Notes under the pieces: model-generated
Seen by the model: only the letters and a program-made list of their open reading frames with translations
Told to the model about the DNA's origin: nothing
The model's database searches: none
Shown: positions 25,727 through 54,738 of the stretch, one piece after another
Layout: the number at the start of each line of letters is the position of its first letter
How positions within the stretch are numbered: position 1 is the stretch's first letter
NCBI GenBank assembly: GCA_003484955.1
Contig: DMZH01000003.1
Span: 112,387-176,386, forward strand
Direction of reading: 5' to 3'
Source: Candidatus Woesebacteria bacterium
GTDB taxonomy: Bacteria > Patescibacteriota > Microgenomatia > UBA8517
DNA: 64,000 nucleotides
Made by a program: the position numbers and the translations under genes

Positions 25727-25728
25727 CT

Positions 25729-26817: not shown

Positions 26818-26834
26818 CGTAATATAATTAATCA

Positions 26835-28789: not shown

Positions 28790-29308
28790 ATGCAATTAAT
28801 CAGCGATAATACAATAAAAAAATTTCTTAATAATCTTCAGGATCAGGGAAAGTCTTTAGTTTCAATTAAAAATTACAAATCCGATATTAACCACTTTTTA
28901 GCCTGGGCAATACTTAAACTTAAATCTCTCGGATCCTACGCGGATAATGTTATCGAGCTTACTCCATTCATCAACCGGGATTTTTTCAATGAATACAAAA
29001 GCTATATGGTTGAGAACAACATCAAGGTAAAAACAATCAACAGACGCCTGTCTTCACTTAGAAACTTATCCAATTTTCTTTACTCCTCCCAAGCTCTGGA
29101 CAGGGATTACATGCAGGGAATTCAAAATGTCGGCATCGGAACATTGACTCCTATGCGGGTAAAAGATCGGGATATTGTTGAGAGGTTCAGGGAATCTCTT
29201 ATCAAGGACGAAAATGTTTCTTCTAATACAGTCAAGAATTATGTTTCCGATGTAAGAGGCTTTCTAGCCTGGATTGAAAAGAAAGGAGAACTGCCCAATG
29301 GGATTTAG
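28790..29308 (+). CDS. Protein made of 1.5 tandem phage-integrase N-terminal SAM-like (core-binding) domains with no catalytic domain. Probably the frameshifted 5' part of the downstream giant gene.
   Basis: Half-domains 'SLVSIKNYKSDINHFLAWA' + 'KVKTINRRLSSLRNLSNFLY' and 'SSNTVKNYVSDVRGFLAWIEKKG' match the Phage_int_SAM_1 pattern (S.nT...Y..d...Fl.w / s..Tinrrlsalr.f..fl). Confidence 0.6.
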   Translation: MQLISDNTIKKFLNNLQDQGKSLVSIKNYKSDINHFLAWAILKLKSLGSYADNVIELTPFINRDFFNEYKSYMVENNIKVKTINRRLSSLRNLSNFLYSSQALDRDYMQGIQNVGIGTLTPMRVKDRDIVERFRESLIKDENVSSNTVKNYVSDVRGFLAWIEKKGELPNGI

Positions 29309-32300
29309 GAAAGTAGTATCAGACCACATCAAAAAGTATCGAAGTGAAGTATTAAAGGATTCTTCAGCCTCAACTTTCGATAGGAAAATGTTCTCACTCA
29401 AGAAATTCTTTGAATGGACAGTTAAAGAAGGATATCTGGATGAAAATCCGGTGGAATCATTCTTACGGGAAGAGCAGGAAACAGTCAAAACAAAGCTCGG
29501 AAAAATTGAGAGACAAAAAAAGCTAAATCCTCCATCCTACGGCTCAGCTCAATCTAGAATTGTCGCAAAATTTGCGGGAAAACCCAAGCTTCAGAAGCTT
29601 GCCTACAATCTTTTTTATGCCAGACCTAAATGGTATAAATCATATCACAATCTACCAATTGCCAGTTATTTCAACTATGCAATTCTTGTTCTTTTGATGT
29701 CCAGCCTTGGTTTTGGAGTATATAATCAATTCTTCAAAACCACCTCCGGTTCCCTTGCCTACCCAACCTCCCTAACCCGTGCCGGAAGGTATTTATCTTT
29801 TCAGGGAAGATTAACCAACAATCTAGGGAATCCCATCACAACTGCAACCAACCTGGTTTTCAAACTCTACAGCGTTGATACGGGTGGGGCGGCCCTTTGG
29901 AACTCCGGAACTTGTTCGATTACACCCGACACCGACGGAATCTTCTCTACTCTTTTAGGAAGCTCCTGCGGAACTGAAATTGCATCATCTGTATTTAGCG
30001 AAAACTCTGCCATTTGGCTTGGAGTGACTGTGGGAGTAGACGCCGAGGCTACTCCAAGAGTGCAAATCGCAACAGTTGCCTATGCTATTAATTCCGAAAC
30101 ACTTCAGGGTTATCCGGCCAGTTCCTCCGCAACAGCCAATACGGTTCCCGTGATGAATAACCTGGGACAAATTGTCTTGGCAGCCGCTTCCCCCAAAATG
30201 CAGTCTACAAGCGGCACTTTTGCTATTGAGGGACAGGCACTAACCATCACGACACCGGATGCTTCCAACGGATCAATCGCTATCAATCCGGATGGAACCG
30301 GCACACTTAATCTTATTTTCGAAGGAGCCGCCCCGGGAGGGGGCGCTGGAGGTTTTGTCAATGCAACCAATGCCAATATAACATCGGGAGCTCTTTATTT
30401 CGGACAGGTTGCCAGTAATGCCACAGGGTATAATCTTTTGCAACTTAAAAGCGGTGCAACCCCAACAGATAAATTTGTAGTTGACTCAGGAGGAAACGTA
30501 ACCGCGGCAGGAACATTTAACGGATTAACGGTTTCCAGCGGAACAATTTCAAGCGGTACCTGGAACGGAACCGCCATTTCAACGACATACGGCGGAACAG
30601 GACAAAATTGGTCGGGAGTGGCTCAAGGATCTCTTCCCTATTTCTCAGCAACAGGAACAATGTCTACCCTCTCTCCCGGAACTTCAGGCTACGTTCTTAC
30701 AACCCAAGGAGCTTCAGCCGATCCAACCTGGACAAGTGCTTCCTCAGTTGGAACAAATTACTGGAATCTTGGAACAGGAACAATATACCCGGGTAACACC
30801 ACGCTTGATTTACTTTTGGGTGCCAGTGCCACAACCAGTGCCAAGTTTGCATTCAAAAATGTTTTAACAGGAACTCCAACGGCCAGTATCTCCGGTTCCA
30901 CCGCTAATGTAGCGACATTCATTGACGGGAATGGCAATATTTCAACAACCAACAGAGCTGATTTAGTGCTTGGCAACTCCGCTACCTACAACTCAACAGG
31001 AAATATTCTTCTTAATCCAAACGGGATTGGATATGTTGGAATTGGGACAACAACACCCTTATATCCTTTAAGCATAGTCGGAACAGCCCCCAATGTTGCT
31101 ACGGGGCGTGTAGTTGATATCGATGGTACTTTATCTTCTACAACGAATGACCAAATTGGTTTAAAAGTATCTCCAAGTGTTTTACCAACTGCTTCAACCA
31201 GCAGGACCTACTCCGGTTTACAACTGTCGCTTTCCGGAAACAGCACAACCAGGCTTACCAATGCTGAATTTCGAGGCATTGAAGGATATGTCAGTTTCAG
31301 CGGAGCATCAGGTTCTTTGGGTACAGGAATTGGTATAAGATCTAGGGTTAATAATACCTCTACAGGTACAATTACTAACGCATATTCTACATATATTGCC
31401 ACCCCAACAAATACGGGAACAATAACCAATACTTATGGTTTATATGTTGATACCCAAACCGTAGGAACTCAAACAAATGCGCCTTTTGCAATATATCAAG
31501 CAGGAACAACAAACAAAAACTACTTTGCAGGCAATGTTGGTATCGGTACCACCTCCCCCACTGTCGAACTTGATGTAGCAGGAGCTGCTTCAATATCAGG
31601 ATCTTTAACTTTCAGAACGGGTGCAGGATCAATCCAAACTACAGCCTTTAATCCACTAACAGTTGGGGGGTCAACTACAGGAAATATCACACTTAATCCA
31701 AGTAACGCCGTATCGGATGGGTATGTGGCACCTGCAGCAAATGGCGTAACCAATCTTGGTACAGCTTCTCTACTTTGGAAAGATGTATACGCATCAGTTC
31801 TTCATCAAGGAGCAAATCTAGTTTGTGATTCAAGCGGTGCCAACTGTCCGGCAGGAGCAGTTTCTTATTGGGGACAGGCTGCGGGAGCCATATATACACT
31901 CAATAATACCGCCGATGTACTCATCGGAGCCACCGCAACGACTTCTGCAAAGTTTGCATTTAAGAATGTGTTAACAGGTACCCCAACCGCTTCAATATCC
32001 GGTTCAACCGCTAATGTTGCTTTGTTTATGGACGGTAATGGCAACATTTCTACAACAAACAGACAAAATTTAGTACTTGGAAATTCAACAACATATGACA
32101 CAACAGGAAACATTCTCCTAAACTCCAATGGAACCGGAAATGTTGGTATCGGCACCACTTCCCCCACCGCACTTTTAGATGTTGCAGGGGCTGCTTCCGT
32201 ATCGGGATCGCTCACATTTAGAACTGGGGCAGGTTCGATCCAAACAACAACATTCTCCCCGATTGCAATCGGCGGTTCAACAACAGGAAATATCACACTT

Positions 32301-35300
32301 AATCCAAGCAATGCGATAGCAGGGGGTTATGTCGCCCCCAATACAACCAATATGTCAGATTTTGGAACCGCTTCCCTACTTTGGAGAAATATATATGGAA
32401 CAACCCTATACCAAGGAGCTAACCAGGTTTGTGATACAAGCGGTAACTGTTCGGCAGCTACTGATATCTGGAGTATTGCCGATGGAGCACTTTATCCGAA
32501 AAATACTTCCGTAGATCTATTACTTGGATCAACCGCAACCACAAGTGCTAAATTTGCACTTAAAAATGTTTTATCTGGTGTTCCTACCGCCTCAATTTCA
32601 GGAAGCACGACAAATGTAGCCACATTCATTGACGGAAATGGCAACATTTCTACAACCAATAGAGCTAACTTGGTGCTTGGAAACTCCGCAACTTACAACA
32701 CAACAGGCAACGTTTTGATTAATCCAAACGGAACCGGAAGAGTCGGTGTAGGAACAACCACACCCAACTCTGCACTTGAAATATATAGTGCTGCTGGTGG
32801 AATTAATGATTATATAGGCCTTAAAAGAGGTGGTACAGATTGGAGAATCTGGGTAAGTGATGGAACCACAGGAACAGCATCGTTAAGAATAGGTGGAAAT
32901 GCGGTGGATAGTTATGCCTGGCAATTTGATTGGACCGGAGCAGCCGCAAATCTTTTTAAGTCTCCCAATGGTGAGGCGGGCCAAATCCCATTGGCTGTAA
33001 GGGCTGCCGGTGCTCAAACAGCAAATATATTTGAAGCCCAAAACTCTGGCGGCACTGCTCTGTTTTCTGTGGGTAGTACCGGAAATATCACAGCAGCCGG
33101 TGTAATTAATGCAGGTGGACTTAGTGGCGTTGCATACAATGCCCTTGCCGGAGGTGGCGATACTCCCGCTGCCACGGCTGCTATCACCACTTCAAACGAT
33201 TTATTTATAGGCGGAGATGCTGAAATTAAAGGCGGACTCTATTTAACCGGCAAAAATATTTTTAATGTTGTCAGCGGAGTTGCAACATCGACAATTTCTC
33301 TGGCCCAAAATCCGGCTACTATAAACAATTACAATGCTTTAAGTTACGGAAGCTGGCTTGTAAACAATAGTACAAATAACGGTATAGCAGCTCTCATGGT
33401 AAACCAAAGCAAAGGTGGAGATATTTTTACTGCCAGTGCTTCAGGATCACCAAAATTTGTAATTGATAACTCCGGTAATGTTGGAATAGGTACAACAGGG
33501 CCAAGAAATGGGCTGGAACTAGCCAAGCTTGACAGCAACTACATAACGAGTTTAAGGGTTGGAGGGATTTTGCAAGGAACTACAGCTGTTGCTATTGGAG
33601 CTGAGACATCCAGACATCAAATTCTATTCTCAAGCTGGAGAGATGTTCAAACGAATACTGTTGGCGCTAAAATAGCAGCTATAAATTGGAATAATTATGC
33701 ATTAAATAATCCTTTAGTTCAAAATACTGATTTGGCATTCTTTACCCTTGGAACTACTCCGGGATCAACTGACGCTACTACTGAAAAAATGCGCATTACT
33801 GCAGCGGGCAACGTCGGTATTGGTACAACTAGTCCAGTATCTAAATTAGATGTGATAGGTGCTCAAAATAACACAATAACTTCTACTAATTCCATCGTTA
33901 AGTTTTTAGGTGATGACGCGGGCATTCATATTGGTAATTTAGCTGGAACTCCAAGTTATGGTGCTTGGTTACAGGCGATGAGAGCCGATAATTTTGCATT
34001 CCCATTATTATTAAACCCACTTGGCGGCAACGTCGGCATCGGGACAACGAGCCCGAGTTACCGGCTCACTTTGGGAGGTACCAGCACTGTGTTTGGGATA
34101 GAAAATGCAACTGCATTCGCAGCCAAAAATTCTGTTGGAGGCTACGAAAATTACCTCTGGCCTCGCTGGTCTGACAATGTTACATATCTAAATTTTGGGT
34201 CAGCTGGATTTAATATCCGAAACAACGGATCTTCGTCAGTGATGGTTATGCAGAATACCGGCAATGTTGGAATTGGGACGACAAGTCCGGATACAAAACT
34301 TGAAATCAACGGATATGCAGATACTTTAAGCGCATTGACTCTTGATGTTGCCCATGGTACATATTTCGTTGAACTTGATCGAAATGGAACCAAAGTTGCA
34401 GATATTTATAAGAATACAAGCGGACCGCTTATTTTTGAGTCTTTTGCGGCTGGGAGTACAACGGCAGAGTTTTCGTTTTCTGGCGGCAAAGTGAATGTCA
34501 CCGGAACAACTACTTACTCAATAACCGGACCTTTTTCGGGAGCCACTGCCAATGCTGCTTGGACAACCGGTTTTGCAACCCAAAATATAAGCACCAGTAT
34601 CCTTGCCAGTGGGGCTTTAGTAGCCAATGGTGTTTTCTCTGCGTCAGACCAACGACTAAAAGAAAATATTGATCAGATCAATCCGGAGATGGTGAATGAC
34701 TTCATGCAAAACATCATTCCTGTTGGCTTTAACTGGAAAAGGGATGGTCTTTACAATACAGGTTTTGTCGCTCAGGATCTTATTCGTAAAGGTTTTGGTT
34801 ATTTAGTAAAAGCCACACCGGATGACAGCATCAGTCAAAGCATTGATGAGGATGGTTTTATAAGTCCGGCAGGGTTCCAATATAACGTTGACTATCAAGC
34901 AGTTGTTCCTATTTTAACCTACGCTTTACAGCAGCAACAAGCTCAAATTGCCTCTCATTCTTCCCAACTGGCTAATCTAGCTCTTACTTCCGATGGAGAT
35001 TTATTGATAGAAGAATCAACTAATGACGGATATTTGGTCCAAAAGACAGATGGAAGTGTTATTTCACAAATTGCTGCTTTAGCCGAAATGGTTATTGCCA
35101 ACATCAAAGCAGGAGCAATTGTCACGGAAGATCTGGCTACCAGTTCCTTTACTGCTTTCCAGGGAACGGTTGATAATATGCTTGTAAAGTCCGGGCTTGT
35201 CTCACCAATTGTCCAAACTGCCCTCATCTCTCCTCTTCCCGGTGACACTGATGTAACTGTCCAAATCGGATCGGTAGCTACCCCTTCCGGACAATTTGCT

Positions 35301-36218
35301 ATTCAAAATACGGAGGGTGTGGATGTTGCAACTATTGATAACCAAGGAAATGCCACTTTCTCCGGCACTCTTTTTGCCGAGGATATCAAGTCTAAATCTC
35401 TTGATGAGATACAGGCTCTTTTGACCCAAGTTCAGGTAGACCAAAATTTACTATCTCAAAGCGCCGGCTGGAATGTAAACACTGCTACAGATTCGGCCTC
35501 ATTAATTGCCGTGGCTAACATCGCTGACCTTTATGTCACGAACCAGGCTGCTATTAACTCCCTATCCGTCACCAATTCTTTAACAATCGGAGCTGATATG
35601 GTTATTCAATCGGCAATCGGTGGTGATCAATTGGTAATGAATAGTATTGATTCACTAACTGCCCCATTAAGAATTCAGAGTCTTGCCATGGCCCCTGTTG
35701 AAATAATGGCCGGCCTTATCAGAATAGATACTGAGGGAAATGTTCAAATCTCGGGTAATCTTGCGGTCGCGGGGAGAATCAAATCTTCCGGACTGACATT
35801 ACAAGAAGAGAACCTGCAAGGTATGGCCCAAAACACAGTCTTTAATGTACAGGACGCTTTGGGTAGTGCGGTAGCAACAATCGACGCCTCCGGTTCCGCC
35901 AGCTTTGGATCGATTTCAACACCCCAACTTGTCATCGCCGGAGCCGATGCAACAGAGTCAGGTACTATTATAGATGGCGTGATTACAACCAATTCTACAA
36001 TCGGGCAGGCGGTTATTCCCGCTGGGGTCTCCGAAATTACGATAAAAAATCCAAAAGTTACCGATTACACTCTTGTATACGTTACCCCAACTTCAACAAC
36101 TGAAAATTATGTACTATATGTAAAGAGCAAAAAAGCGGGAGAATTTGTAGTCGGATTCACAAACCCGATTTCAATTGACGTTAACTTTAACTGGTGGATA
36201 GTGCGTGTGACCCAATAA
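29274..36218 (+). CDS. Giant (2314 aa) single-pass membrane-anchored fibre protein: a tail-fibre-like repetitive ectodomain with an internal peptidase-S74-type intramolecular chaperone domain.
   Basis: The N-terminus completes the second SAM-like domain (SASTFDRKMFSLKKFFEWTVKEGYLDENP). TM helix at about aa 125-150. Three near-identical ~140-aa repeats (..TTSAKFAFKNVLTGTPTASISGSTANVATFIDGNGNISTTNR..). Eight or more GNVGIGTTSP..L.V.G motifs. SDQRLKENI...GFVAQDL at aa 1791 onward, then about 420 further aa. Confidence 0.8.
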   Translation: MKRKENCPMGFRKVVSDHIKKYRSEVLKDSSASTFDRKMFSLKKFFEWTVKEGYLDENPVESFLREEQETVKTKLGKIERQKKLNPPSYGSAQSRIVAKFAGKPKLQKLAYNLFYARPKWYKSYHNLPIASYFNYAILVLLMSSLGFGVYNQFFKTTSGSLAYPTSLTRAGRYLSFQGRLTNNLGNPITTATNLVFKLYSVDTGGAALWNSGTCSITPDTDGIFSTLLGSSCGTEIASSVFSENSAIWLGVTVGVDAEATPRVQIATVAYAINSETLQGYPASSSATANTVPVMNNLGQIVLAAASPKMQSTSGTFAIEGQALTITTPDASNGSIAINPDGTGTLNLIFEGAAPGGGAGGFVNATNANITSGALYFGQVASNATGYNLLQLKSGATPTDKFVVDSGGNVTAAGTFNGLTVSSGTISSGTWNGTAISTTYGGTGQNWSGVAQGSLPYFSATGTMSTLSPGTSGYVLTTQGASADPTWTSASSVGTNYWNLGTGTIYPGNTTLDLLLGASATTSAKFAFKNVLTGTPTASISGSTANVATFIDGNGNISTTNRADLVLGNSATYNSTGNILLNPNGIGYVGIGTTTPLYPLSIVGTAPNVATGRVVDIDGTLSSTTNDQIGLKVSPSVLPTASTSRTYSGLQLSLSGNSTTRLTNAEFRGIEGYVSFSGASGSLGTGIGIRSRVNNTSTGTITNAYSTYIATPTNTGTITNTYGLYVDTQTVGTQTNAPFAIYQAGTTNKNYFAGNVGIGTTSPTVELDVAGAASISGSLTFRTGAGSIQTTAFNPLTVGGSTTGNITLNPSNAVSDGYVAPAANGVTNLGTASLLWKDVYASVLHQGANLVCDSSGANCPAGAVSYWGQAAGAIYTLNNTADVLIGATATTSAKFAFKNVLTGTPTASISGSTANVALFMDGNGNISTTNRQNLVLGNSTTYDTTGNILLNSNGTGNVGIGTTSPTALLDVAGAASVSGSLTFRTGAGSIQTTTFSPIAIGGSTTGNITLNPSNAIAGGYVAPNTTNMSDFGTASLLWRNIYGTTLYQGANQVCDTSGNCSAATDIWSIADGALYPKNTSVDLLLGSTATTSAKFALKNVLSGVPTASISGSTTNVATFIDGNGNISTTNRANLVLGNSATYNTTGNVLINPNGTGRVGVGTTTPNSALEIYSAAGGINDYIGLKRGGTDWRIWVSDGTTGTASLRIGGNAVDSYAWQFDWTGAAANLFKSPNGEAGQIPLAVRAAGAQTANIFEAQNSGGTALFSVGSTGNITAAGVINAGGLSGVAYNALAGGGDTPAATAAITTSNDLFIGGDAEIKGGLYLTGKNIFNVVSGVATSTISLAQNPATINNYNALSYGSWLVNNSTNNGIAALMVNQSKGGDIFTASASGSPKFVIDNSGNVGIGTTGPRNGLELAKLDSNYITSLRVGGILQGTTAVAIGAETSRHQILFSSWRDVQTNTVGAKIAAINWNNYALNNPLVQNTDLAFFTLGTTPGSTDATTEKMRITAAGNVGIGTTSPVSKLDVIGAQNNTITSTNSIVKFLGDDAGIHIGNLAGTPSYGAWLQAMRADNFAFPLLLNPLGGNVGIGTTSPSYRLTLGGTSTVFGIENATAFAAKNSVGGYENYLWPRWSDNVTYLNFGSAGFNIRNNGSSSVMVMQNTGNVGIGTTSPDTKLEINGYADTLSALTLDVAHGTYFVELDRNGTKVADIYKNTSGPLIFESFAAGSTTAEFSFSGGKVNVTGTTTYSITGPFSGATANAAWTTGFATQNISTSILASGALVANGVFSASDQRLKENIDQINPEMVNDFMQNIIPVGFNWKRDGLYNTGFVAQDLIRKGFGYLVKATPDDSISQSIDEDGFISPAGFQYNVDYQAVVPILTYALQQQQAQIASHSSQLANLALTSDGDLLIEESTNDGYLVQKTDGSVISQIAALAEMVIANIKAGAIVTEDLATSSFTAFQGTVDNMLVKSGLVSPIVQTALISPLPGDTDVTVQIGSVATPSGQFAIQNTEGVDVATIDNQGNATFSGTLFAEDIKSKSLDEIQALLTQVQVDQNLLSQSAGWNVNTATDSASLIAVANIADLYVTNQAAINSLSVTNSLTIGADMVIQSAIGGDQLVMNSIDSLTAPLRIQSLAMAPVEIMAGLIRIDTEGNVQISGNLAVAGRIKSSGLTLQEENLQGMAQNTVFNVQDALGSAVATIDASGSASFGSISTPQLVIAGADATESGTIIDGVITTNSTIGQAVIPAGVSEITIKNPKVTDYTLVYVTPTSTTENYVLYVKSKKAGEFVVGFTNPISIDVNFNWWIVRVTQ

Positions 36219-36285
36219 ATGACAAAAACCATATATAAAACCACATCAAACATTATCTCTATATATAAAGTAACGATGATATGGA

Positions 36286-38671: not shown

Positions 38672-38734
38672 CCCTGATAATTATATCGTTTGTTACTTGC
38701 AAAATGAAATTTAGGGTGTTATATATTTACTACC

Positions 38735-39247
38735 ATGGAAGAAGGCTCAACAGGGACTCAAACGGAAGCTAAAAAGAAAGGTTCTAAATGGCTTTTCAAG
38801 TCAATCCCCTACATTATTATCCTCGCAATTGGTATATACGGCGGAACATACCTTGTCAGACAAAAACCCACCTGGTTCGGTCTTCCCCAGGGAACGGCAC
38901 AGGCCCAGGCAGAAGCAAACGCACTGGTTGCTAAAGTTTCAAAGCTTATGACTCTCCCCACCGACGAAACACCAACCATTGCAACGGTCACCGATGTCTC
39001 AATTGTCGCCGATCAACCGTTTTTCAAAAACGCCCAAAATGGAGATAAAGTTTTGATTTATCAAAAAGCCGGAAAAGCAATTCTTTACCGTGAGAGTGAA
39101 AACAAAATCATAGAAGTCGGGGCAGTTAATTTTAATCAGGCCGCCGCCAGTCCGGAAGTTTCTGCTATTGCTACACCAACTGCGAAACCAACCGTTGCAC
39201 CAACAGCTTCTCCGGTAGCCTCGCCGGTTTCAACTCCTACCCAGTAA
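38735..39247 (+). CDS. Hypothetical membrane-anchored protein with a Pro/Thr/Ala-rich C-terminal tail.
   Basis: TM (IPYIIILAIGIYGGTYLV). The C-terminus is ATPTAKPTVAPTASPVASPVSTPTQ. Confidence 0.4.
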   Translation: MEEGSTGTQTEAKKKGSKWLFKSIPYIIILAIGIYGGTYLVRQKPTWFGLPQGTAQAQAEANALVAKVSKLMTLPTDETPTIATVTDVSIVADQPFFKNAQNGDKVLIYQKAGKAILYRESENKIIEVGAVNFNQAAASPEVSAIATPTAKPTVAPTASPVASPVSTPTQ

Positions 39248-39248
39248 A

Positions 39249-39321
39249 TTTACAAGTTTCTACAACACGCAAGGAAACCCAAAGTTGTAAATTTGGGCAT
39301 GTTTTTACAAGTTGTTACAAC
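39249..39321. promoter_or_regulatory. Repeated TTTACAAGT(N4)TACAAC motifs (two copies plus an internal inverted copy) at the 3' boundary of the minus-strand fibre operon.
   Basis: TTTACAAGTTTCTACAAC at 39249-39266. TTTTTACAAGTTGTTACAAC at 39302-39321. Inverted AGTTGTAAATTT at 39283-39294. The same motifs occur at 54746-54832. Confidence 0.4.
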
Positions 39322-40136: not shown

Positions 40137-40144
40137 ACAAAAAC

Positions 40145-42925: not shown

Positions 42926-42969
42926 TCTCCTATATTATTATAGCCCCTTGGTAACATCTTTCAAACAAA

Positions 42970-44766: not shown

Positions 44767-44774
44767 TTCAAAGC

Positions 44775-47700: not shown

Positions 47701-50700
47701 CCTGAAAGAGTGGCACCGTTAATTGTTGATGAGGCTGATATTGTTGTAATACCACTTAATGCGCCTGAATTAATAATTAAACCGTTTATTGTATTTGTGG
47801 AGGTGGGTGCAGATATTGCACTCGTGGCGGATAAACCGGTAAATGCGCCACTTGCAGGTGTTACCGCTCCAATTGTTGCACCGTTAATTGTTCCCCCTGT
47901 AATTTGTCCTCCGGTGATAAAAACGTTACCCGCAGATTGAGTAGCAATTGTTCCTAAGCCTGATATATCGGTTGTTGAAATACTCAATAATGTTTTAACT
48001 TGAGCGGCAGTTAAAGCAATCGGAGTTGCGGAACTTCCAGTGTTGTTTCCGATAATTGAGTTGGCTGCGAGATTAGCCATCTTTCCCAAAGTTACTGCTC
48101 CATTGGCAATTGTTACAGCAAAAGATCCCGTACCAGAACCTGTTACATCACTTGTTAGACTAATTGTCTGATCTCCTGTGTTTGTTCCGGATGAACTGCC
48201 TGAAAAGTTTGATCCCAACAAAGTTCCAGTAACTGACAAATTCCCTGTTGTTCCCGCATCAGTTAAGGTAAGAAGAGTGTTGGGTGTAGCATTACTGTCT
48301 TTGATAGTTAACACCCCCGCGGCATCGCCTGCCCCCAAAGTCAATACCGGAACCGAGCTCGAGAAAAGTAATGGTGAGGCAGATGATAATGTAATTCCAT
48401 TTGATGTTGTTGCTCCCCTGCCCGTAACTGACAATAGAGTATCGGCTTCGGTAGTAGATAAATTAAGAGTTCCACCAAGAGAAAGGGAGCCTCCGCCTGA
48501 GAGAATTCCACTGGTGTTAATAGTAACCGAGGAGTTGGTCAAGCTGGAGTTGCCGATATTGGATAGTGTGTTGGTAGAACCCGATATAGAAAGACCCGTT
48601 GCGGTTCCTCCAATCGTCACACCACTAACTTGCCCCCCTGTTATGAATACATTACTTGCACTCTGAGTGGCTATTGTACCTAAGCCCGACACATCAGACG
48701 TTGAAATTCCAAGTAAAGTTTTGACCTGAGAAGCAGTTAAAGCAATCGGAGTTGTGGAACTTCCCGTATTATTTCCAATTATCGAATTGGCAGCCAAGTT
48801 TGCCATTTTACCTAAAGTAACTGCTCCTGAAGCAATAGTTGTAGCAAAAGATCCGGTACCGGTTCCGGTCACATCACTGGTTAATGTGATTGTCTGGTCT
48901 CCTGTGTTGGTACCGCTTGATGTTCCTGAGAAATTGGATGCACCAATTGTCCCTTCAACAGAAAAGTTGGCAAGTCCTGTACTACTGTTGGTAATGGTTA
49001 AAGTTCTATCAAGAGCATTATTAAAGTCAAATGTCAGGGAGGCTCCGCTTAATGGAATATTTGTGTCTGAGATAGTCAAGTCACTGAAAGTCCAAGCCCC
49101 TGATATTGATTGTATTTGGTCAGTCCTTGTAATTTTTGAATTGGTGTAATCAATTGCTATGTTTCCCTCTCCTGCCGGGGAATTTGTCGCATCAAAATCG
49201 GCTGCAAGAAAATCAACTGTTGTAGCGCTTGTAACCACATCAGCATCACCAATTTGGATGGTTGATATTCCTCCTCCTGCACCTGTGTCATCAGTACCGC
49301 AAGTTAAGACTCCTGCCACTGTCTCCAGAGCAGAACAGTTTGCAAATGAGCTATCGTACAATGTTATGCCAGCTCCACTACTACCCGCTTTGATTGTCAA
49401 AGTATCTGTATTAGTATCACCCAGGGTGGTATTTCCATTAGAATCAAGGATTGTGAAGTTACCACCTGCTCGGGTTGTACCACCAATGGTGATATTGTTA
49501 ATAGTTCCACCCACAAGTTGACCTCCTGTTATATAAACGTTGCTGGCAGACTGTGTTGCGATGGTGCCAAGGCCTGAGATATCGTTTGTTGAGATACCTA
49601 GTAAGGTCTTAACTTGGGAAGCTGTAAGTGCGATTGGTGTGGCAGCAGAACCAGTATTATTACCGATTATTGAATTTGCTGCCAGGTTGGTCATCTTACT
49701 TAGAGATACTGCTCCGTTTCCGATCGCGGTTAAGCCGGTATTATTTATTGATATATCTCCCGTAACGGCAACACCTGTTGCAATGTTTGATCCATTACCC
49801 ACAAAGATGTTGGCGCTTGTTAAGGTTTTTGAAAGCTTTCCCGAAAGAGAGGCTGTAAGATCTGTTTGATCATCAAGTAAGCCCGTGATTGCTCCCCAGG
49901 CAACTCCGGATGAGTTGGTAATCCAGGAAAGAGCAGAGCCGTTTGTACCCAGAACCTTGCCACTGTTGCCTGTTTGATCGGGCAGAACTTTGGTTGGGGA
50001 AAGGGATGTAATCCAGCCGGGATCAGCGTATGAACCGGTTGAAAGAATTATATTTCCCGTTGTCACTCCGTTGACGGCTACCGTTGATAATGATCCTCCG
50101 GAAATGGAACCACCCGAAATTGTGGCACCATTAATCGATACTAAACCACTAAGCTGTCCACCGGTAATAAACACATTGCTGGCAGATTGAGTAGCAATTG
50201 TTCCCAATCCCGAAACATCTGAGGTTGAAATCCCCAATAAAGTTTTAACTTGGGATCCGGTCAATGCGATTGGGGTGGCGGAGGATCCAGTGTTGTTTCC
50301 GATAATTGAGTTGGCTGCGAGATTGGCCATTTTTCCTAAAGTTACAGCTCCACCGGCAATTGTGGTAGCAAATGATCCTGTGCCAGATCCCGTAACATCA
50401 CTGGTTAAGGTAATCGTTTGGTCTCCTGTGTTGGTACCGCTTGATGTTCCTGAGAAATTGGATGCGGATATTGTCCCGTCGACTATGACATTGGCAACCT
50501 GGGAAGTCGTTGAATTAAGAATATTAAGTGTCCTCGTGGTGGCCCCGGTTAAATCAAATATCGTATTCCCGCCCGAGAAAGTAATTGTGGGGGTCGTTCC
50601 TGAAAAAGTAATCGGGGTGGCGGATGATAAAGTCAATGCTGTTGCAGTTGAAGCTCCGCGACCGGTGACCGATGAAAATGTATCCGCCTCAGTTGCCAAA

Positions 50701-52913
50701 AGATTTAATGTTCCCCCAAGAGATAAACTTCCGCCGCCCGAGAGAATTCCACTGCTATTAATGGTAACTGAAGAATTACTAAGACTGGAATTGCCAATGT
50801 TGGATAAAGTGTTTGATGCCCCCGAAATTGTTAAACCGGAGGCTGTACCGGCAATTGTTACCCCACTAATTTGCCCTCCTATTACATATATATTGCTGGC
50901 AGATTGAGTAGCTATTGTTCCCAATCCAGAAATGTCCGATGTTGAAATGCCCAGCAAGGTTTTTACCTGAGCTCCTGTTAGGGCAATTGGAGTCGCGGAA
51001 CTTCCTGTATTATTTCCGATTATTGAGTTAGCCACAAGGTTGGCCATCTTGGAAAGGGATATTGCACCATTTCCGATAGTTGTACTAATTGTGGTTGCCC
51101 CGCTTCCTGAAACGTCCCCACTTAAAGTAATTGTTTGGTTACCGGTTAAATAATTTGAATTATTGGTCCATTGAGAAATATTTCCTGACGTAAAGTTGGC
51201 AACTGAAAGACCGGATATGGTGTTACTTGCTCCCGAGATAGTTTTATTGGTTAAAGTGTCGCTTGTTGCCCGACCGATAAGAGTGTCTGTAGATATCGGC
51301 AAGGTTAGAGTTCCGGTATTACTAATTGTTGAAATAATAGGAGATGTACTAAACGTCCAAGTCCCGGTAACCGACTGAGTTTGATCACTTCTGACTATTT
51401 TTGAGTTGGTGTAATCAATCGATAAATTCCCCTCGCCTGCGGGAGAATTCGTCAGATCAAAATCAGCTCCCAAAAAATCAATTGTAGTTGCAGATGAAAC
51501 TACTGTTACATCATCTGCTTGAAGTGTTGAAATTCCCCCTCCCGTTCCTCCTGCATCAGTTGCACAGTCCCAGGAGGAGGTACTATCCGTCCACTTTAAA
51601 AGTTCGCCGTCGCCGCAAGTCCGGATTAAAGAAAGTCCTGACGAAGTGGCCACAAGCCCTCCCCCCGATTGAATATTCAAAGCCAAACTAGTAGCACCCG
51701 AGGTTCCTCCTCCGGTCAAACCATTTCCCGCGGTTACACCGGTAATTGTCCCTGATCCTCCGGATGTTCCACAGGACCCCCAAGTAAAGCCCCCGGTACT
51801 ATTGTTGTAAGTTAAACATTGTCCGCCGGTTGGATCATTCGAAGATGCCAAATCGGATTCATTTATGGAGCTATCGGAAACGCCTACCGCTGTAATTCCA
51901 GAAAGATCAACTGAAAGCGTTGCAATGTTATCAAGTGTGGCAACTGTTAATTTAGAACTATCGCTTTTTATGTCGGTTATTCCCTGAATTATCTCGCCTA
52001 CCGTCTGTTGATAAACACTATTGCCGCTTGAGATTGATTGGGCAACACTCTGAATATAATTCACAACTCCTTGAATTGGAGATGTCAAAATGGCACCGCC
52101 TGACGTTCCACCAGCAAAAGCCCATGTTCCCGTACTCTCGTCAAAGATCGGCTTATTGAATCCCGTTGGCTGATAATCAGAAATTCCCAAAACATCAATA
52201 TTCGCAGAAAGCTCATAAATTGAATTGAAAAGGGAGATTGCGTTCTTGGCAACCGTACTTTCTACTTCGGTTGTTTTCTGAGCGCCGGTTTTTATGACGA
52301 CATTTAAGATTTTACCGTTCTTATCAACCGTTCCTGCAACTACAAATCCGGTATCATATGTCTGTCCCACAAAGTCACCAATCAGCCTTCCCTCTTCAAC
52401 CTTTCCTTGAAGAATCTTAATTGCATAGGAGGTGTTGCTATCTAAAACCAAATTGGCAATCATTCTATCCATAATTTGGCCCACAGCTCTTGTGCCGTCT
52501 TTCAAATAAAAAGTGGTTATGATCCCATCACTAAAACTATCAAGCGCTTGGTCACCTGATAAGAATAAAATTCTTGCTCTATTAACAAATTGGTTGCCGT
52601 CCCCTTTTACCTCTCCGCTGATAACTTTATATACAGAAAATGAACCGTTTGATAAAAGTGCTGTCCCGACAACCTTATCATCAAAAAATGAATTTTCTAC
52701 TCTTTCTTCGTCAAGATAGCCTGATCTGGTCTCGACATCTTTGACCATTTGAGAGATGTTCGATGTCAAAAATCCCTTTTGTCCAGCAAGGTTTAGAAAA
52801 TATCCCCCTCCAACAGCCACCGCTGAAGTAATCGCAAGAACCAATACAACGACTAAGGGTATTACCCCGTCGTTATACTTTTTCTGAGACTGATATTTTG
52901 TTATCCGTAACAA
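44775..52913 (-). CDS. Giant (2712 aa) N-terminally membrane-anchored repetitive fibre protein.
   Basis: TM at aa 17-40. Five or more ~150-aa repeats (..AISLSKMANLAANSIIGNNTGSSATPIALT..QVKTLLGISTSD.SGLGTIATQSASN..). Four Cys-pair 'C.DG.LLKW....W.C..D.GG.GGG.ST' motifs. Many 'GAITGATATNTINGIIINSGA' repeats. Unique beta-rich C-terminal domain. Confidence 0.8.
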   Translation of the reverse strand: MLRITKYQSQKKYNDGVIPLVVVLVLAITSAVAVGGGYFLNLAGQKGFLTSNISQMVKDVETRSGYLDEERVENSFFDDKVVGTALLSNGSFSVYKVISGEVKGDGNQFVNRARILFLSGDQALDSFSDGIITTFYLKDGTRAVGQIMDRMIANLVLDSNTSYAIKILQGKVEEGRLIGDFVGQTYDTGFVVAGTVDKNGKILNVVIKTGAQKTTEVESTVAKNAISLFNSIYELSANIDVLGISDYQPTGFNKPIFDESTGTWAFAGGTSGGAILTSPIQGVVNYIQSVAQSISSGNSVYQQTVGEIIQGITDIKSDSSKLTVATLDNIATLSVDLSGITAVGVSDSSINESDLASSNDPTGGQCLTYNNSTGGFTWGSCGTSGGSGTITGVTAGNGLTGGGTSGATSLALNIQSGGGLVATSSGLSLIRTCGDGELLKWTDSTSSWDCATDAGGTGGGISTLQADDVTVVSSATTIDFLGADFDLTNSPAGEGNLSIDYTNSKIVRSDQTQSVTGTWTFSTSPIISTISNTGTLTLPISTDTLIGRATSDTLTNKTISGASNTISGLSVANFTSGNISQWTNNSNYLTGNQTITLSGDVSGSGATTISTTIGNGAISLSKMANLVANSIIGNNTGSSATPIALTGAQVKTLLGISTSDISGLGTIATQSASNIYVIGGQISGVTIAGTASGLTISGASNTLSNIGNSSLSNSSVTINSSGILSGGGSLSLGGTLNLLATEADTFSSVTGRGASTATALTLSSATPITFSGTTPTITFSGGNTIFDLTGATTRTLNILNSTTSQVANVIVDGTISASNFSGTSSGTNTGDQTITLTSDVTGSGTGSFATTIAGGAVTLGKMANLAANSIIGNNTGSSATPIALTGSQVKTLLGISTSDVSGLGTIATQSASNVFITGGQLSGLVSINGATISGGSISGGSLSTVAVNGVTTGNIILSTGSYADPGWITSLSPTKVLPDQTGNSGKVLGTNGSALSWITNSSGVAWGAITGLLDDQTDLTASLSGKLSKTLTSANIFVGNGSNIATGVAVTGDISINNTGLTAIGNGAVSLSKMTNLAANSIIGNNTGSAATPIALTASQVKTLLGISTNDISGLGTIATQSASNVYITGGQLVGGTINNITIGGTTRAGGNFTILDSNGNTTLGDTNTDTLTIKAGSSGAGITLYDSSFANCSALETVAGVLTCGTDDTGAGGGISTIQIGDADVVTSATTVDFLAADFDATNSPAGEGNIAIDYTNSKITRTDQIQSISGAWTFSDLTISDTNIPLSGASLTFDFNNALDRTLTITNSSTGLANFSVEGTIGASNFSGTSSGTNTGDQTITLTSDVTGTGTGSFATTIASGAVTLGKMANLAANSIIGNNTGSSTTPIALTASQVKTLLGISTSDVSGLGTIATQSASNVFITGGQVSGVTIGGTATGLSISGSTNTLSNIGNSSLTNSSVTINTSGILSGGGSLSLGGTLNLSTTEADTLLSVTGRGATTSNGITLSSASPLLFSSSVPVLTLGAGDAAGVLTIKDSNATPNTLLTLTDAGTTGNLSVTGTLLGSNFSGSSSGTNTGDQTISLTSDVTGSGTGSFAVTIANGAVTLGKMANLAANSIIGNNTGSSATPIALTAAQVKTLLSISTTDISGLGTIATQSAGNVFITGGQITGGTINGATIGAVTPASGAFTGLSATSAISAPTSTNTINGLIINSGALSGITTISASSTINGATLSGGTLSGGSLSGGTYSGTALSGTGSFTITGGTAASETLTLVSTSNITKGDIQFFSASNKITSAGALTIVGALSASNVSGSNTGDQTITLTGDVTGSGTGSFATTIAGNSVALTTDTTGDYVATLTSGNGISAAATGEGSAPTISLAALTADWNQTGAFDIVLVNTSSELKMLESGVTPTLYGILDIGDLSTSDSTFTFSGSSGTVVTSSNAAAQLSAWDQTASDDLTTSNYSTTLDSIYVNVGESPTGGDISGSFSGGLTIAANSVALGTDTTGNYIASATSNGGLTMTGTEGGSLGIDLPAATDALSVTTSSGSGLELLVSGVTLLQGCSDGQLLKWNETADTWGCSADNTGAGGGVSTIKEGGTNIVTSAVALNYVAADFIITDETAGVAGITIDYANSKIIRKSDSAVTFDAGATFSTTGNLNGVTINTATGASGNSGAITIQTGGTSVSGTSGSVTIDTGAGVTSNGAITIGGTNASNLAIGRATVTTTVNGTLAAGGVLISGGSINGTTLGASTPSTGAFTTLSATGAITGATATNTINGIIINSGAVSNVSTLGLSGAITGATATNTINGLIINSGALSGITTINASGQITSTLVTGTAPFVVASTTNVANLNASSLNGATFAAPGSIGSTTPGSGAFTTLSATGAITGATATNTINGVIINSGAVSNVSTLGLSGAITGATATNTINGLIINSGALSGATTLGLSGAITAATATNTINGIIINSGAVSGVSTLGLSGAISGATATNTINGMIINSGAVSGVTTLGASSTVTIGSGGNTYTFNPAAAPALAGTARPDRREELVPEFPGAVLTGSGTGTMTSDFCAASAGVGGLTATNTTVCNTSGDTHNYYNWTTTQGTPQTYTVYLKWRVPDNFSAWDTSNSIQAYAKRSDATNGHVNIKVYDTANALNNAGGTEIAGAANTWIQNGINISGGTWTAGSYMTIQIDVTAAATGGITDVGEISLNYFTSN

Positions 52914-52914
52914 C

Positions 52915-54738
52915 TTATTTATTTTTCCTTAAGAATGTAACGAGTGTTAAACTTCCGATAGTGGTTATAATAAAAAATAGAAATGTTGCAAAACCCATCA
53001 AACTATATATCCTTATAGCGGCTGACTGGGATTGTGCAGCCACAACTCCCCAATTGTAATCGTCAACATTTTTATAAGCCTCAAGCTTCAAGACTCCTTC
53101 ATAATCATAAGTAACCAATGATCCGCTCGTTCCCGAAACGGCTTTCATTACCAAACTATCAGAGGGTGCCTTTATTATTGTATCTTGAGGGTCGGGATTT
53201 AGAATATAATTTCCACTGGAATCTGCTACCGTAAATGAACTTGTTCCAGTGTGGTCAATTTGTCCTAATTGTCTTTGAAGTTCAAAGATATCAACCGAGC
53301 CTAAAATCACGCCCAAAAATTTGCCGTCTGTACCAATTATAGGAAGTGAGATTAAGATCGAGGGTTCAATTCCCGGAGAGTTGGGTTTGATAAAACCCGT
53401 CACAAAAACTCTGCCTGTCTTCGCTGGTTCACTAAAATAATCCCTATTGGAAATGTCTACATTCTGACTTTGAAAATAAAACGGATAAGTATCAACAATC
53501 TTACCGTTTCCGTCTGTAACAACCATACGGACAAAAGAATTATTTGAAGACAGATAGATTTGTTTAAGTTCACTATCTAAATCAGCAGTAGACCCTTCGA
53601 TCAACAATTTGGACAAATTGTTGTCGCTTAGAAAAGCTGAAAGGGTTAGTGTGTTTCTGTCCATGAAATTTTTAGTCACCTCGGATGCTAACTCAACCCT
53701 TCCGTTCATCTCGTCTAAGATGATAGTTTGAAAAGAACGATATGCCATCCGAAGCATAAATGATCCGATAAAGAAAACACCCAAGATCCACAAGAAACAA
53801 ACCAGAGCCTCTTTTTTAGTCTTTGTTTTAAAAGTATCAAATTCACTGGCGAAGGGATAGACAAACGAAAATGTTCCTAGGGTTATTCCAAAAATAGATC
53901 TACCCCAGTACCCACCTGTAAAAGACATTGCGGAGTAAATAAGCGCTATTGTTCCGGCTATAAAGGAGGTTATTATCATGAAATATTTACTTCCTTTTAA
54001 AGCTTTAAGGCTCAAGAATAAAAGTAAACAAAAAAATGCAAACCAAACCGCAGCAAACACGTCCCGGGAGACTATTCCGGTACGAAAAAGAATGGAGAAT
54101 GTAGAAGAACCTGGCCAAATAAGAAATCCTAGACCAATCAAAACAAACAAAAGGTTTATAAAAATTAGATATTGCAAGCGATAATTTATCCTTTTTATAG
54201 CCGAGAGTATAAGAACAACCGACAGCGATAAATATCCTACCGAAGAAACAGATTTTTGAGACAAAAATATTCCCGCTAGAACCAATGACAAAACGCCAAT
54301 GTAAAGATATAAGGCTGTATGTTTGTGGCCTTTATTAATCATGAAAGTATCAAAACCAAGTAAAAGTGCCCCCCCAATAAAAAGAAGAATATTTACAACG
54401 TTCAAATATGGCGCAATTTCCATTAATGGCTGTTGGGCATTTGCATAAACTGGATTTGTGAATTGGGAAAAACCGAGACCAATTGCAAGAAATCCTATAA
54501 ACCAATCAAAAATACTGAGTGATTTTTTAGGATCAGGCGCCGAAGATGGTGTCTCCTGAAGACTTTTACCTCTTTCCTGAAGAAGTCTGTTCACTTCGCT
54601 CGCCGGTATTCTAAACCTCCCCTCGGCACCCAACCTGACAGCTTTAATGCTGCCGTTTTCCAAATATTTATAGACCGTGTTTGTAGAAAAACCAAGAAGA
54701 TTTGCTACCTCTTTTACTGTGTAGGTCGATTTGGGCAT
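52915..54738 (-). CDS. Membrane-bound one-component regulator: N-terminal HTH (excisionase/HTH_17-type), about 8 TM helices, an extracytoplasmic Cache-like sensor domain and a C-terminal TM.
   Basis: YTVKEVANLLGFSTNTVYKYLENGSIKAVRLG...RFRIPASEV is the HTH. A long polytopic region follows. The Cache-like stretch is (..VTDGNGKIVDTYPFY..DISNRDYF..GVILGSVDIFELQ..). Its stop overlaps the giant gene start by 1 bp. Confidence 0.65.
   Translation of the reverse strand: MPKSTYTVKEVANLLGFSTNTVYKYLENGSIKAVRLGAEGRFRIPASEVNRLLQERGKSLQETPSSAPDPKKSLSIFDWFIGFLAIGLGFSQFTNPVYANAQQPLMEIAPYLNVVNILLFIGGALLLGFDTFMINKGHKHTALYLYIGVLSLVLAGIFLSQKSVSSVGYLSLSVVLILSAIKRINYRLQYLIFINLLFVLIGLGFLIWPGSSTFSILFRTGIVSRDVFAAVWFAFFCLLLFLSLKALKGSKYFMIITSFIAGTIALIYSAMSFTGGYWGRSIFGITLGTFSFVYPFASEFDTFKTKTKKEALVCFLWILGVFFIGSFMLRMAYRSFQTIILDEMNGRVELASEVTKNFMDRNTLTLSAFLSDNNLSKLLIEGSTADLDSELKQIYLSSNNSFVRMVVTDGNGKIVDTYPFYFQSQNVDISNRDYFSEPAKTGRVFVTGFIKPNSPGIEPSILISLPIIGTDGKFLGVILGSVDIFELQRQLGQIDHTGTSSFTVADSSGNYILNPDPQDTIIKAPSDSLVMKAVSGTSGSLVTYDYEGVLKLEAYKNVDDYNWGVVAAQSQSAAIRIYSLMGFATFLFFIITTIGSLTLVTFLRKNK

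Follow-up and report, generated by a model that had tools for sequence, protein, structure and literature searches.

Two conserved surface-fiber modules in Microgenomates with putative membrane-tethered DNA-binding partners

We analyzed a stretch of 64,000 nucleotides from a Candidatus Woesebacteria bacterium (Patescibacteriota, Microgenomatia; NCBI GenBank assembly GCA_003484955.1, contig DMZH01000003.1, positions 112,387 to 176,386 of the forward strand), hereafter the window, in which two very large genes encode putative membrane-anchored surface fibers, here termed G1 and G2, each next to a gene for a candidate DNA-binding protein. An earlier note, made from the sequence alone, had drawn attention to this block, and all of its open reading frames (ORFs) were recovered at the same window coordinates and strands: those of 172 aa (28790-29308, plus), 2314 aa (29274-36218, plus), 657, 273, 926, and 598 aa, 2712 aa (44775-52913, minus), and 607 aa (52915-54738, minus). 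Pfam likewise backs Phage_int_SAM_1, Peptidase_S74 in G1, tetratricopeptide repeats (TPR), DUF7948 with SBBP, HTH_17, and dCache_1. As described, both giants have a single N-terminal transmembrane (TM) segment, and Ser, Thr, Gly, and Asn are abundant in their sequences; the long internal repeats also exist, but they are not near-identical as had been claimed, having 65 to 79% identity in DNA and 55 to 92% in protein. We group these genes into a first module (a Big_1 gene, the 172-aa ORF A, G1, and a TPR membrane protein) and a second module (a regulator termed HTH-Cache, G2, and the products of two downstream genes, u598 and bp273); loci and proteins of other genomes are cited by L and P numbers.

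A predicted membrane-bound regulator paired with giant fibers

The HTH-Cache gene (52915-54738, minus strand) encodes a 607-aa protein with an N-terminal helix-turn-helix (HTH) domain of the excisionase-type HTH_17 family (54571-54723; residues 6 to 56; Pfam E = 8e-12; also matched by TIGR01764, "excisionase family"), about nine TM helices, an extracytoplasmic dCache_1 domain (53038-53718; residues 341 to 567; Pfam E = 1e-20), and a final TM helix, the TM count of 10 coming from hydropathy and manual reading of the sequence. The closest solved chain to the HTH by sequence is 4J2N (E = 1.7e-3), deposited as "Gp37," which we take to be a mycobacteriophage excisionase. The family comprises at least 87 clustered homologues of 600 to 660 aa in Patescibacteria, with invariant columns concentrated in the HTH. 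Searches of Pfam and NCBIfam found no kinase, receiver, or other domain besides HTH_17, the TM helices, and dCache_1, and since no other output domain is present, the HTH must be the output. The protein has the layout of a membrane one-component regulator, with a cytoplasmic DNA-binding domain, a membrane span, and an outer sensor.

The direct succession of regulator and giant, which the earlier note had described for the window, proved to be general. A profile scan of one genome per GTDB species returned 32 HTH-Cache loci, 24 of them with a full-length match, and in all 24 as well as in L051, a relative with 57% identity, the regulator gene is directly followed on the same strand by a giant with an N-terminal TM segment (25/25). 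The two ORFs overlap or abut in most loci, and the adjacency holds down to ~23% HTH-Cache identity. Where complete, the paired giants have 1694 to 3248 aa; in three loci the giant region is fragmented into two to four consecutive ORFs, and in the remaining loci it runs off a contig end. The first 250 to 600 residues of these giants constitute one family with two subfamilies, bridged by L019. Their distal parts are mosaic: the L028 giant has collagen repeats (E = 7e-200) and a C-terminal H-type lectin, and would be a trimeric lectin-tipped fiber, whereas G2 has DUF5907-like units, 31-aa repeats, and a C-terminal domain.

G2 itself (44775-52913, minus strand, 2712 aa) consists of a TM helix (52794-52865), a conserved base domain (~51834-52781), five repeats of ~240 aa (~47574-51266), 31-aa repeats (~45324-46466), and a C-terminal tip (~44778-45296) that is 65% identical in L051; its internal repeats share 58 to 92% protein identity. 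Residues 501 to 900 match DUF5907 (PF19264) at 25.6 bits, under the cutoff of 27, with a faint match on the L051 orthologue, and the tail-fiber character that had been ascribed to G2 found no counterpart among tail-fiber families.

Directly upstream of the regulator gene lies an operator-like array. A promoter-like −35 element, TTGACA (54834-54839, minus strand), is conserved in alignments of the region, and downstream of it two to four tandem copies of a ACTTGTAAAAAC-type repeat (core T[TGA]GTAAN[AT]A) are spaced ~10 to 24 bp apart; in the window, this leader array (54746-54791, minus strand) ends 7 nt before the HTH-Cache ATG. Clusters of at least two sense-strand copies directly upstream of HTH-Cache are found in the window, in 19 of the 24 related loci, and in L051, against a background of 0.43 copies/kb, and they hold even where the regulator is only ~24% identical. 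RNAalifold predicted no conserved RNA structure in the leader (0 pairs). Excisionase-type HTH proteins bind tandem direct repeats, and autoregulation by the HTH is the simplest inference. The exact 12-mer ACTTGTAAAAAC occurs three times in the window, twice in the HTH-Cache leader and a third time at 39301-39312, within a second array (39250-39320, minus strand) at the 3' end of the minus-strand cluster, past the bp273 stop. This array has four degenerate CTTGTAA-type copies, and after its exact ACTTGTAAAAAC comes ATGCCCAAA, a conserved sequence with which HTH-Cache genes begin. An array is also present at the equivalent position in L051, and in Gottesmanbacteria-type loci a second array is seen at the 3' end of the divergent upstream gene. 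The second array of the window may be what is left of another HTH-Cache/giant module, now lost, or it may function as a 3' site or operator.

The genes downstream of G2 are less well conserved. The earlier note had placed HTH-Cache, G2, and three further genes in a single operon with gaps of 1, 8, 44, and 8 nt; these gaps are borne out by the ORF coordinates, but the single five-gene operon is not. The first of the three, u598 (42970-44766, minus strand), encodes a secreted, Thr-rich protein with no family match, the C-terminal 235 aa of which are 32% identical to a 760-aa protein that follows the giant in L051. The second, SBBP926 (40145-42925, minus strand), has DUF7948 (188.6 bits, E = 2e-55) and SBBP (154.3 bits, E = 7e-46) domains above the Pfam cutoffs; it is absent from L051 and from L013-L044, and a promoter-like TTGAAA-16-TATAAT (42964-42937) lies in the 44-nt gap upstream of it. 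A promoter and terminator scan gave counts no better than shuffled sequence. By its distribution, SBBP926 is a lineage-specific insertion outside the conserved module. The third, bp273 (39315-40136, minus strand), encodes a secreted protein with beta-propeller-like repeats and has an orthologue of 54% identity in L051; it had been called PD40-like, but no PD40 match was found, and the only indication is the beta-propeller repeat model TIGR04275 (E = 8e-10), under its cutoff. A small TM-anchored protein, u170 (38735-39247, plus strand), recurs beside giants: L034 and L035 each have a homologue downstream of the giant that is linked to HTH-Cache, and in L051 another is convergent with the bp273 homologue, giving the order HTH-Cache, giant, 760-aa protein, bp273 orthologue, and convergent u170. 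Pfam, PHROGs, NCBIfam, and PDB sequences yielded no usable family for G2, u598, bp273, u170, or u140, and none of u598, SBBP926, and bp273 was detected in the more distant loci of the GTDB scan. Because the downstream genes are missing or changed in relatives, the conserved core is HTH-Cache plus giant, and the five-gene arrangement is lineage specific.

Three further observations concern these two genes. A short motif in G2, ISQWTNNSNYLTGNQTITLSGDVSGSG (residues 523 to 570, ~51204-51347), was the best-matching stretch for most of the best 150 of the 2995 representatives, many of them giants, that matched G2 residues 1 to 650 with E < 1e-3. This short repeat dominated the exhaustive search with the G2 N terminus; word-indexed searching gave eight matches, and none in any such search exceeded ~950 aa. 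By sequence, the motif is a very widespread fiber repeat, at best weakly covered by Pfam DUF5907. In L002 (11826-19890, GCA_003518415.1), G2 is called as two ORFs of 1689 and 1032 aa because of a 76-nt deletion within the repeats relative to 44775-52913, the remainder being 99.8 to 100% identical; the deletion is probably a repeat collapse in the assembly or a real variant. Finally, a 20-nt stretch in the HTH-Cache coding region (53362-53381, encoding NSPGIEP) is identical at 19 of 20 positions to 54958-54977, where the neighboring tRNA-Ala has its 3' end; the two stretches are 1.6 kb apart on one strand. This likeness has an att-type look, would bracket only part of one gene, and is probably due to chance.

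A fiber family with recombinase-type cytoplasmic domains

ORF A (28790-29308, plus strand) encodes a soluble 172-aa protein with one full integrase core-binding (SAM-like) domain (Pfam Phage_int_SAM_1, E = 7e-16) and the first two helices of a second. Identical copies are on record in 64 blocks of the assembly collection, and the ORF was read on 21 contigs from several samples. The giant that follows, G1 (29298-36218, plus strand), has 2306 aa from its ATG and 2314 aa from the first TTG (29274); the ATG at 29298, which is preceded by an AAGGAG Shine-Dalgarno sequence and gives an 11-nt overlap with ORF A, is most likely the start. From the N terminus, G1 comprises a cytoplasmic half SAM-like domain, a TM helix, a base domain, a repeat shaft, a beta-helix-like region, an S74 domain, and a 524-aa C-terminal region. 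Its residues 6 to 45 (29313-29432) align to positions 43 to 83 of the 83 in the Pfam profile and correspond to helices 3 and 4 of the second SAM-like domain, completing the half that ORF A carries.

ORF A was joined to the G1 N terminus, and the joined sequence was used for homologue searches and for AlphaFold2 (AF2) modeling. Many single-chain homologues span 95 to 100% of it, continuously over the junction; in them, a pair of SAM-like domains in tandem is joined by a linker to a TM helix, beyond which lies a strongly conserved ecto-domain. In the window, ORF A ends and G1 takes over after helix 2 and before helix 3 of the second domain, and about 35 of 109 homologues begin exactly at the half domain. 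Separate SAM-like ORFs of 154 to 171 aa lie upstream of such giants in three divergent genomes: in L048, a whole gene is inserted between the two; in L049, they overlap by 11 nt of unrelated sequence; and in L050, they are separated by a 113-nt spacer with a hairpin. Because three divergent genomes share this split with the window, a frameshift artifact does not account for it. The coupling of fiber and DNA-binding module, the central claim of the earlier note, extends beyond this assembly and is conserved, both in many fused Microgenomates proteins and in the split form of L048-L050. The co-existence of fused and split forms of one domain also provides Rosetta-stone support for docking of the 172-aa protein on the cytoplasmic tail of the fiber, and we infer that ORF A and G1 would dock by completing the shared domain.

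The AF2 model of the joined sequence has a mean predicted local distance difference test score (pLDDT) of 83, and residues 124 to 212, across the junction, are modeled as one four-helix unit (pLDDT 84 to 97). In Foldseek searches, the helical domains resemble the core-binding domains of XerD (root mean square deviation [rmsd] 1.9 Å), lambda Int, and Cre, and they also match phage integrases and the N-domain of a Haloarcula integrase (target TM-score 0.79). They share the four-helix fold with the recombinases (rmsd 1.7 to 1.9 Å to XerD 1a0p and 3nrw) but differ from them in being tandem, in being attached to a TM helix and a giant ectodomain, in having one domain naturally split, and in having no catalytic domain: neither ORF A nor G1 gave a match to Phage_integrase (R-H-R-Y), and the Pfam domains precomputed for the homologues did not include it either. 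NCBI labels such SAM-like-TM-fiber proteins (P0003, P0004, P0008, P0014, and others) "site-specific integrase, partial," a name that is wrong because the chain has no recombinase catalytic domain and runs on into a TM helix and fiber. By domain content, G1-family proteins are not integrases.

Beyond the membrane, the G1 TM helix (29658-29723; from hydropathy, an AF2 helix at joined-model residues 291 to 315, and conservation in the alignment) is followed by a membrane-proximal base domain (29793-30110) with the conserved pattern LSFQGRLT...TPDxDGIF...PRxQIATVAYAxNSETLQG. The base holds the invariant columns of the homologue alignments and is modeled as a beta domain of ~105 residues (pLDDT 86 to 97); a domain of the same type also follows the signal peptide in S74 proteins from outside the candidate phyla radiation (CPR; P0097-P0109). 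The shaft (30495-32972) has three repeats of ~200 to 370 aa with 55 to 84% protein identity, and residues 1379 to 1532 match the solved Bdellovibrio mosaic adhesive trimeric (MAT) fiber Bd2133 (8OND; E = 2.2e-5, phmmer against PDB). Farther out is a Peptidase_S74 intramolecular chaperone/autoprotease domain (34644-34784; residues 1791 to 1837 of the 2314-aa ORF; PF13884, 24.5 bits against a cutoff of 22), with the catalytic motif SDQRLK (SDxxxK) starting at residue 1783 in ATG numbering. The protein does not end with this domain but continues for 524 residues past the cleavage motif, and of these the final 370 are kept in L045 at 54% identity. By sequence and model, G1 is a TM-anchored, tail-fiber-like mosaic fiber with a conserved base, a variable shaft and tip, and a Peptidase_S74 domain, and it is presumably trimeric. 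A co-occurring strain (L009, 6894-16235, in ERZ28564383) has an identical 172-aa ORF A and a giant of 3113 aa that is 93% identical to G1 (29298-36218) over its first 632 aa but only 49% over the distal 970 aa, and the combination of an identical ORF A with a diverged distal giant therefore indicates population-level swapping of fiber shaft and tip.

A 510-nt intergenic region precedes ORF A and holds a candidate operator region (28506-28634, plus strand), recognized as conserved blocks in an alignment of seven loci, with a tandem TTTACCGCAA/TTTCCCGCAA (28506-28525, plus strand) and an inverted TGCGGTAA (28627-28634); a conserved −35 TTGACA lies at 28720-28725 (plus strand). The pattern TT[AT][AC]CGCA, which was drawn up after seeing the data, occurs at 3.3/kb in the intergenic regions upstream of G1-type giants and at 0.12/kb elsewhere (26 times the background in these loci); its position is conserved across loci, the tandem direct copies on the plus strand falling between −255 and −311 and the inverted ones on the minus strand between −127 and −163.

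Divergent from the module lies the gene for a TM-anchored protein with a Big_1 (Ig-like) domain (27774-28277, minus strand; Pfam E = 6.5e-12), found in the same place and orientation in L045-L050 (all seven loci, with the window). Downstream of G1, a polytopic 657-aa membrane protein (36286-38259, plus strand) has ~12 predicted TM helices and strong C-terminal TPR matches, and L046 and L047 carry orthologues of it (30 to 32% identity) downstream of their giants. The Wzy_C domain that the earlier note had assigned to it amounts to a weak Wzy_C-like region (PF04932, 23.9 bits, under the cutoff of 31.7), and a PDB sequence search gave TPR matches only. A role as a PglL-like O-glycosyltransferase for the Ser/Thr-rich fiber was considered and set aside, the Wzy_C evidence being subthreshold. 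On the strength of their synteny, the Big_1 and TPR proteins are conserved neighbors belonging to the G1 module. Small genes of the 23S_rRNA_IVP/bAvd-type four-helix-bundle family, with a possible link to diversity-generating retroelements, were also seen beside SAM-fiber genes (L045, 19858-20427; L048, 1777-2133 and 4616-5116; L049, 1510-1887), one of those in L048 lying between the SAM-like ORF and the giant; none was seen in the window.

Chromosomal setting

The earlier note had described the block as accessory, but both loci are syntenic in related genomes and are set among housekeeping genes. Flanking genes encode LeuRS, ArgRS, MreB, ComEA/ComEC, Rho, an M23 peptidase, a sortase, and three tRNAs, and the remaining genes of the window are also housekeeping, including the mevalonate pathway, UppS, and NDK. 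GC content is unremarkable, and an Rfam scan of the window found only the three tRNAs. No phage structural gene was found in the window, as the earlier note had observed, with capsid, terminase, portal, tail-tube, and baseplate all lacking a match. PHROGs matched only the SAM-like domain of ORF A (integrase family) and one family of unknown function. The G1 C terminus had no match among 50,697 phage genomes, and neither giant-linked family had relatives in IMG/VR viral contigs. Att-flanked integration and phage packaging genes are likewise lacking. Because of the synteny in relatives and the housekeeping surroundings, we regard the block as neither a prophage nor an accessory island but as a conserved chromosomal locus. 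Identical genes occur on a 750-kb Rifle sediment contig, in several Rifle groundwater assemblies, and in GCA_003518415.1, and homologues carry the names Woesebacteria, Gottesmanbacteria, Roizmanbacteria, Shapirobacteria, and similar, in keeping with an organism of the Microgenomates.

Several neighboring genes are of interest in their own right. Six successive genes without a family (21701-27773, plus strand) encode secreted or TM-anchored proteins of 241, 245, 329, 498, 362, and 312 aa; u245 and u498 have a C-terminal region in common, and u329 is a paralogue of u362, each having a TM anchor at its C terminus. Most of the six lie upstream of the Big_1/SAM-fiber module in L045-L047, with u498, u362, and u312 in all three, and L048-L050 have ORFs that match the cluster in size, sizes being the only basis of this comparison. 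The cluster may be a further cell-surface complex of the same locus. DNA-uptake genes (16694-19323, minus strand) adjoin LeuRS and the surface-protein cluster and encode ComEA (SLBB and HHH_3) and a ComEC split into Competence and Lactamase_B ORFs; ComEA also lies upstream in L005-L008, L011, and L012 (the same genome) and in L049, and both ComEA and ComEC do so in L047. On the other side of the block, an 866-aa polytopic membrane protein (57607-60207, minus strand) without a Pfam match is encoded by a gene overlapping that of a GT4 glycosyltransferase; it is conserved at 75% identity in L051 and at 33 to 36% in L013-L015, and it may be a large membrane glycosyltransferase of an unassigned family.

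Fiber state, DNA binding, and competing explanations

Neither architecture was found described in full-text searches of the literature. Of known systems, the MAT fibers and the ToxR-type regulators come nearest, each of which shares the general design and fails at least one defining feature. ToxR/ToxS, TcpP/TcpH, and CadC are membrane-bound one-component regulators. HTH-Cache resembles ToxR, TcpP, and CadC in its cytoplasmic N-terminal DNA-binding domain, its sensor beyond the membrane, and the lack of a phosphorelay, and further in a single-pass membrane partner, here predicted to be co-transcribed, and in direct-repeat sites near its own gene, here candidates. It differs in having an excisionase/MerR-type HTH_17 instead of an OmpR-type winged helix, 10 TM helices instead of one, a dCache_1 sensor, and a giant fiber (1,700 to 3,300 aa where complete) as a partner instead of a small periplasmic protein. 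HTH-Cache would work like ToxR but stands outside that family. With phage excisionases (Xis), among which we count 4J2N, it shares the HTH_17/TIGR01764 fold and, as a candidate target, tandem direct repeats ~10 bp apart, but its HTH forms the N terminus of a polytopic sensor protein of 607 aa that has neither an integrase partner nor a mobile element around it.

For G1, the closest counterparts are the MAT fibers of Bdellovibrio bacteriovorus (Bd2133, Bd3182), an organism that lives on other bacteria. MAT fibers are trimeric and surface displayed, have mosaic tips, and are of S74 or non-S74 type, and one of them binds a prey surface glycan; the S74 catalytic motif is SDxxxK, and in Bdellovibrio the chain of an S74 MAT finishes with that domain (PMC10769870). 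Both MATs and G1 are cell-encoded, tail-fiber-like fibers with an S74 chaperone/protease bearing SDxxxK and swappable mosaic tips, and each has a conserved membrane-proximal N-terminal beta domain, a predicted one in G1. However, MATs have ~1000 aa and a signal peptide, followed by an N-terminal beta domain of ~130 aa, with no cytoplasmic part and no known surface anchor, whereas G1 has 2306 aa, is anchored by a TM helix that precedes its own beta domain of ~105 residues, carries or recruits cytoplasmic integrase core-binding-like domains, and extends 524 residues beyond the S74 motif.

With slightly better than even confidence, we read these loci as two conserved Microgenomates surface-fiber modules in which putative adhesin fibers are coupled to membrane-tethered DNA-binding domains. 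Both fibers would be trimeric adhesins for attachment of an episymbiont to a host or surface, and the state of the fiber would be relayed to DNA through the tethered domain. In the second module, the HTH would bind the leader repeats and autoregulate the HTH-Cache operon, and the Cache domain would sense an external ligand, the fiber base, or both and so set HTH-Cache activity; the HTH-Cache/giant pair would then act as ToxR does with its co-transcribed ToxS, or as CadC does. The G1 family would follow the same logic by way of a DNA-binding tail on the fiber itself. ToxR/ToxS-like membrane one-component control of mosaic adhesin fibers is most likely, and the lineage-wide association of a fiber with a membrane-tethered DNA-binding module suggests contact or host sensing wired directly to gene control. 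The coupling of surface sensing to regulation that the earlier note had raised is plausible, and the conserved operator-like arrays would back it indirectly. A bolder version, in which the fibers themselves are the sensory input of membrane-tethered transcription factors in Microgenomates, we consider doubtful. Host or surface engagement would in that case be passed through the conserved fiber base to one of two receivers, either a covalently or non-covalently docked DNA binder of the integrase core-binding type (the G1 family) or a Cache-bearing, excisionase-type HTH protein (the G2 family), and the naturally split SAM-like domain would serve as a releasable latch.

Several points weigh against a relay from fiber to DNA. 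DNA binding, ligand sensing, trimerization, surface exposure, and adhesion are all deduced, and SAM-like domains without a recombinase catalytic domain could be protein-interaction modules. The classical S74 chaperone domain is a short terminal domain of ~150 aa, and the 524 residues beyond the motif in G1 are unlike both this short domain and the S74 MATs that end in it. The G2 base domain was modeled with a pLDDT of only 54, and Foldseek searches of PDB with this low-confidence model returned noise instead of a fold match (probability ≤0.35, rmsd ~19 Å). The G1 operator motif is a candidate defined post hoc, and its 9-mer TTWMCGCAA is not enriched over the window (four found against 3.3 expected). 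The second ACTTGTAAAAAC array would not be accounted for by simple autoregulation, and the leader repeat, which could act at the RNA level, stands in place of an obvious Shine-Dalgarno sequence, with a conserved CTGCC just before the ATG. For a pure regulator, being translationally coupled to a structural protein of 2712 aa would also be unusual, and a stoichiometric complex fits at least equally well.

Alternatively, the giants would be plain adhesins whose DNA-binding-like partners have no sensory link to them, HTH-Cache being an ordinary chemosensing autoregulator that heads the operon by chance and the SAM-like helices a non-DNA-binding cytoplasmic assembly or anchoring adaptor. We regard this explanation as unlikely on balance but as the most serious competitor. 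Four-helix domains without a catalytic domain could well serve protein-protein contacts, every functional link between fiber and DNA is one of interpretation, the known ligands of dCache_1 domains are small molecules, and the distal fiber parts are as mosaic and variable as those of simple adhesins would be. Against it stand the unbroken adjacency of HTH-Cache and giant over great divergence, the conservation of the giant base domain along with the regulator, the retention of the SAM-like module, fused or split, among widely diverged loci, and the conserved cis motifs upstream of both modules.

Regulated release of the kind known from Notch and MyRF is improbable. Fiber engagement would here free the DNA-binding module as a soluble transcription factor, either because a protease cuts the fused forms or because the 172-aa protein of the split form undocks, and the split form does show that the DNA-binding part can be a separate soluble polypeptide, presumably docked via the shared domain. 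MyRF is a membrane-bound transcription factor freed by S74 self-cleavage. In MyRF, as in the G1 family with its predicted autoproteolytic S74 domain, a DNA-binding domain and a TM segment occur together with S74 of the phage type; the presence of an S74 domain in MyRF is noted in PMC10769870. However, the MyRF S74 lies on the side of the DNA-binding domain and releases it, and the DNA-binding folds are unrelated; the G1 S74 is extracellular and ~1640 residues from the membrane, so that its cleavage cannot free the cytoplasmic domain. The locus has no gene for a site-2 protease or similar enzyme, and nothing points to cleavage of HTH-Cache.

Less probable still is a role in DNA handling, in which the integrase- and excisionase-type domains would tie the fiber base to the chromosome or to incoming DNA, serving transertion (transcription and translation of these genes coupled to insertion into the membrane), mechanical anchoring, or DNA uptake. 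Both modules are indeed of the recombination-accessory type, not of the classical regulator type, and the window, L047, and L049 have ComEA and ComEC close by, but this closeness looks like ordinary lineage synteny with LeuRS, sequence-specific arrays at the operon's own leader fit regulation better, and the recombinase catalytic domain is missing. Hardly any weight is left for a split of ORF A and G1 that arose by frameshift error, effectively refuted, or as a recent pseudogene of a fused gene: fused homologues do exist and the two frames differ by +1 within an A-rich stretch, but the identical split recurs in the 64 assembly-collection blocks and appears on the contigs read from several samples, G1 starts with an AAGGAG and ATG of its own, and the break point is shared with the three divergent split loci and with the homologues that begin at it. 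A phage-derived element, whether prophage, tailocin, or remnant island with tail-fiber genes, is effectively refuted, since the joint occurrence of S74, an integrase-type SAM-like domain with a PHROGs integrase match, and an excisionase-type HTH is set against chromosomal synteny in many genomes and the lack of phage structural genes, of relatives in IMG/VR viral contigs, and of a recombinase catalytic domain.

The CPR, or Patescibacteria, make up a large share of bacterial diversity. To our knowledge, it is not known how most of them find, hold, and respond to their hosts, and we know of no cultured model for Microgenomates. Two lineage-wide modules are defined here: a misannotated family of fibers with recombinase-type tails, and an obligate pair of sensor-HTH and giant fiber with an operator-like repeat. 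As a basis for deducing that two proteins interact, the recurrent natural split of one four-helix domain over two chains is also unusually clean. Even a conservative reading yields candidate host-attachment adhesins, a likely regulator, and a likely operator for a major uncultured group. If it is true that the DNA-binding modules read the state of the fiber, this would be a new design for contact sensing, and ultra-small episymbionts would possess a direct route from contact to transcription, built from the domains of phage recombination and phage tail fibers.

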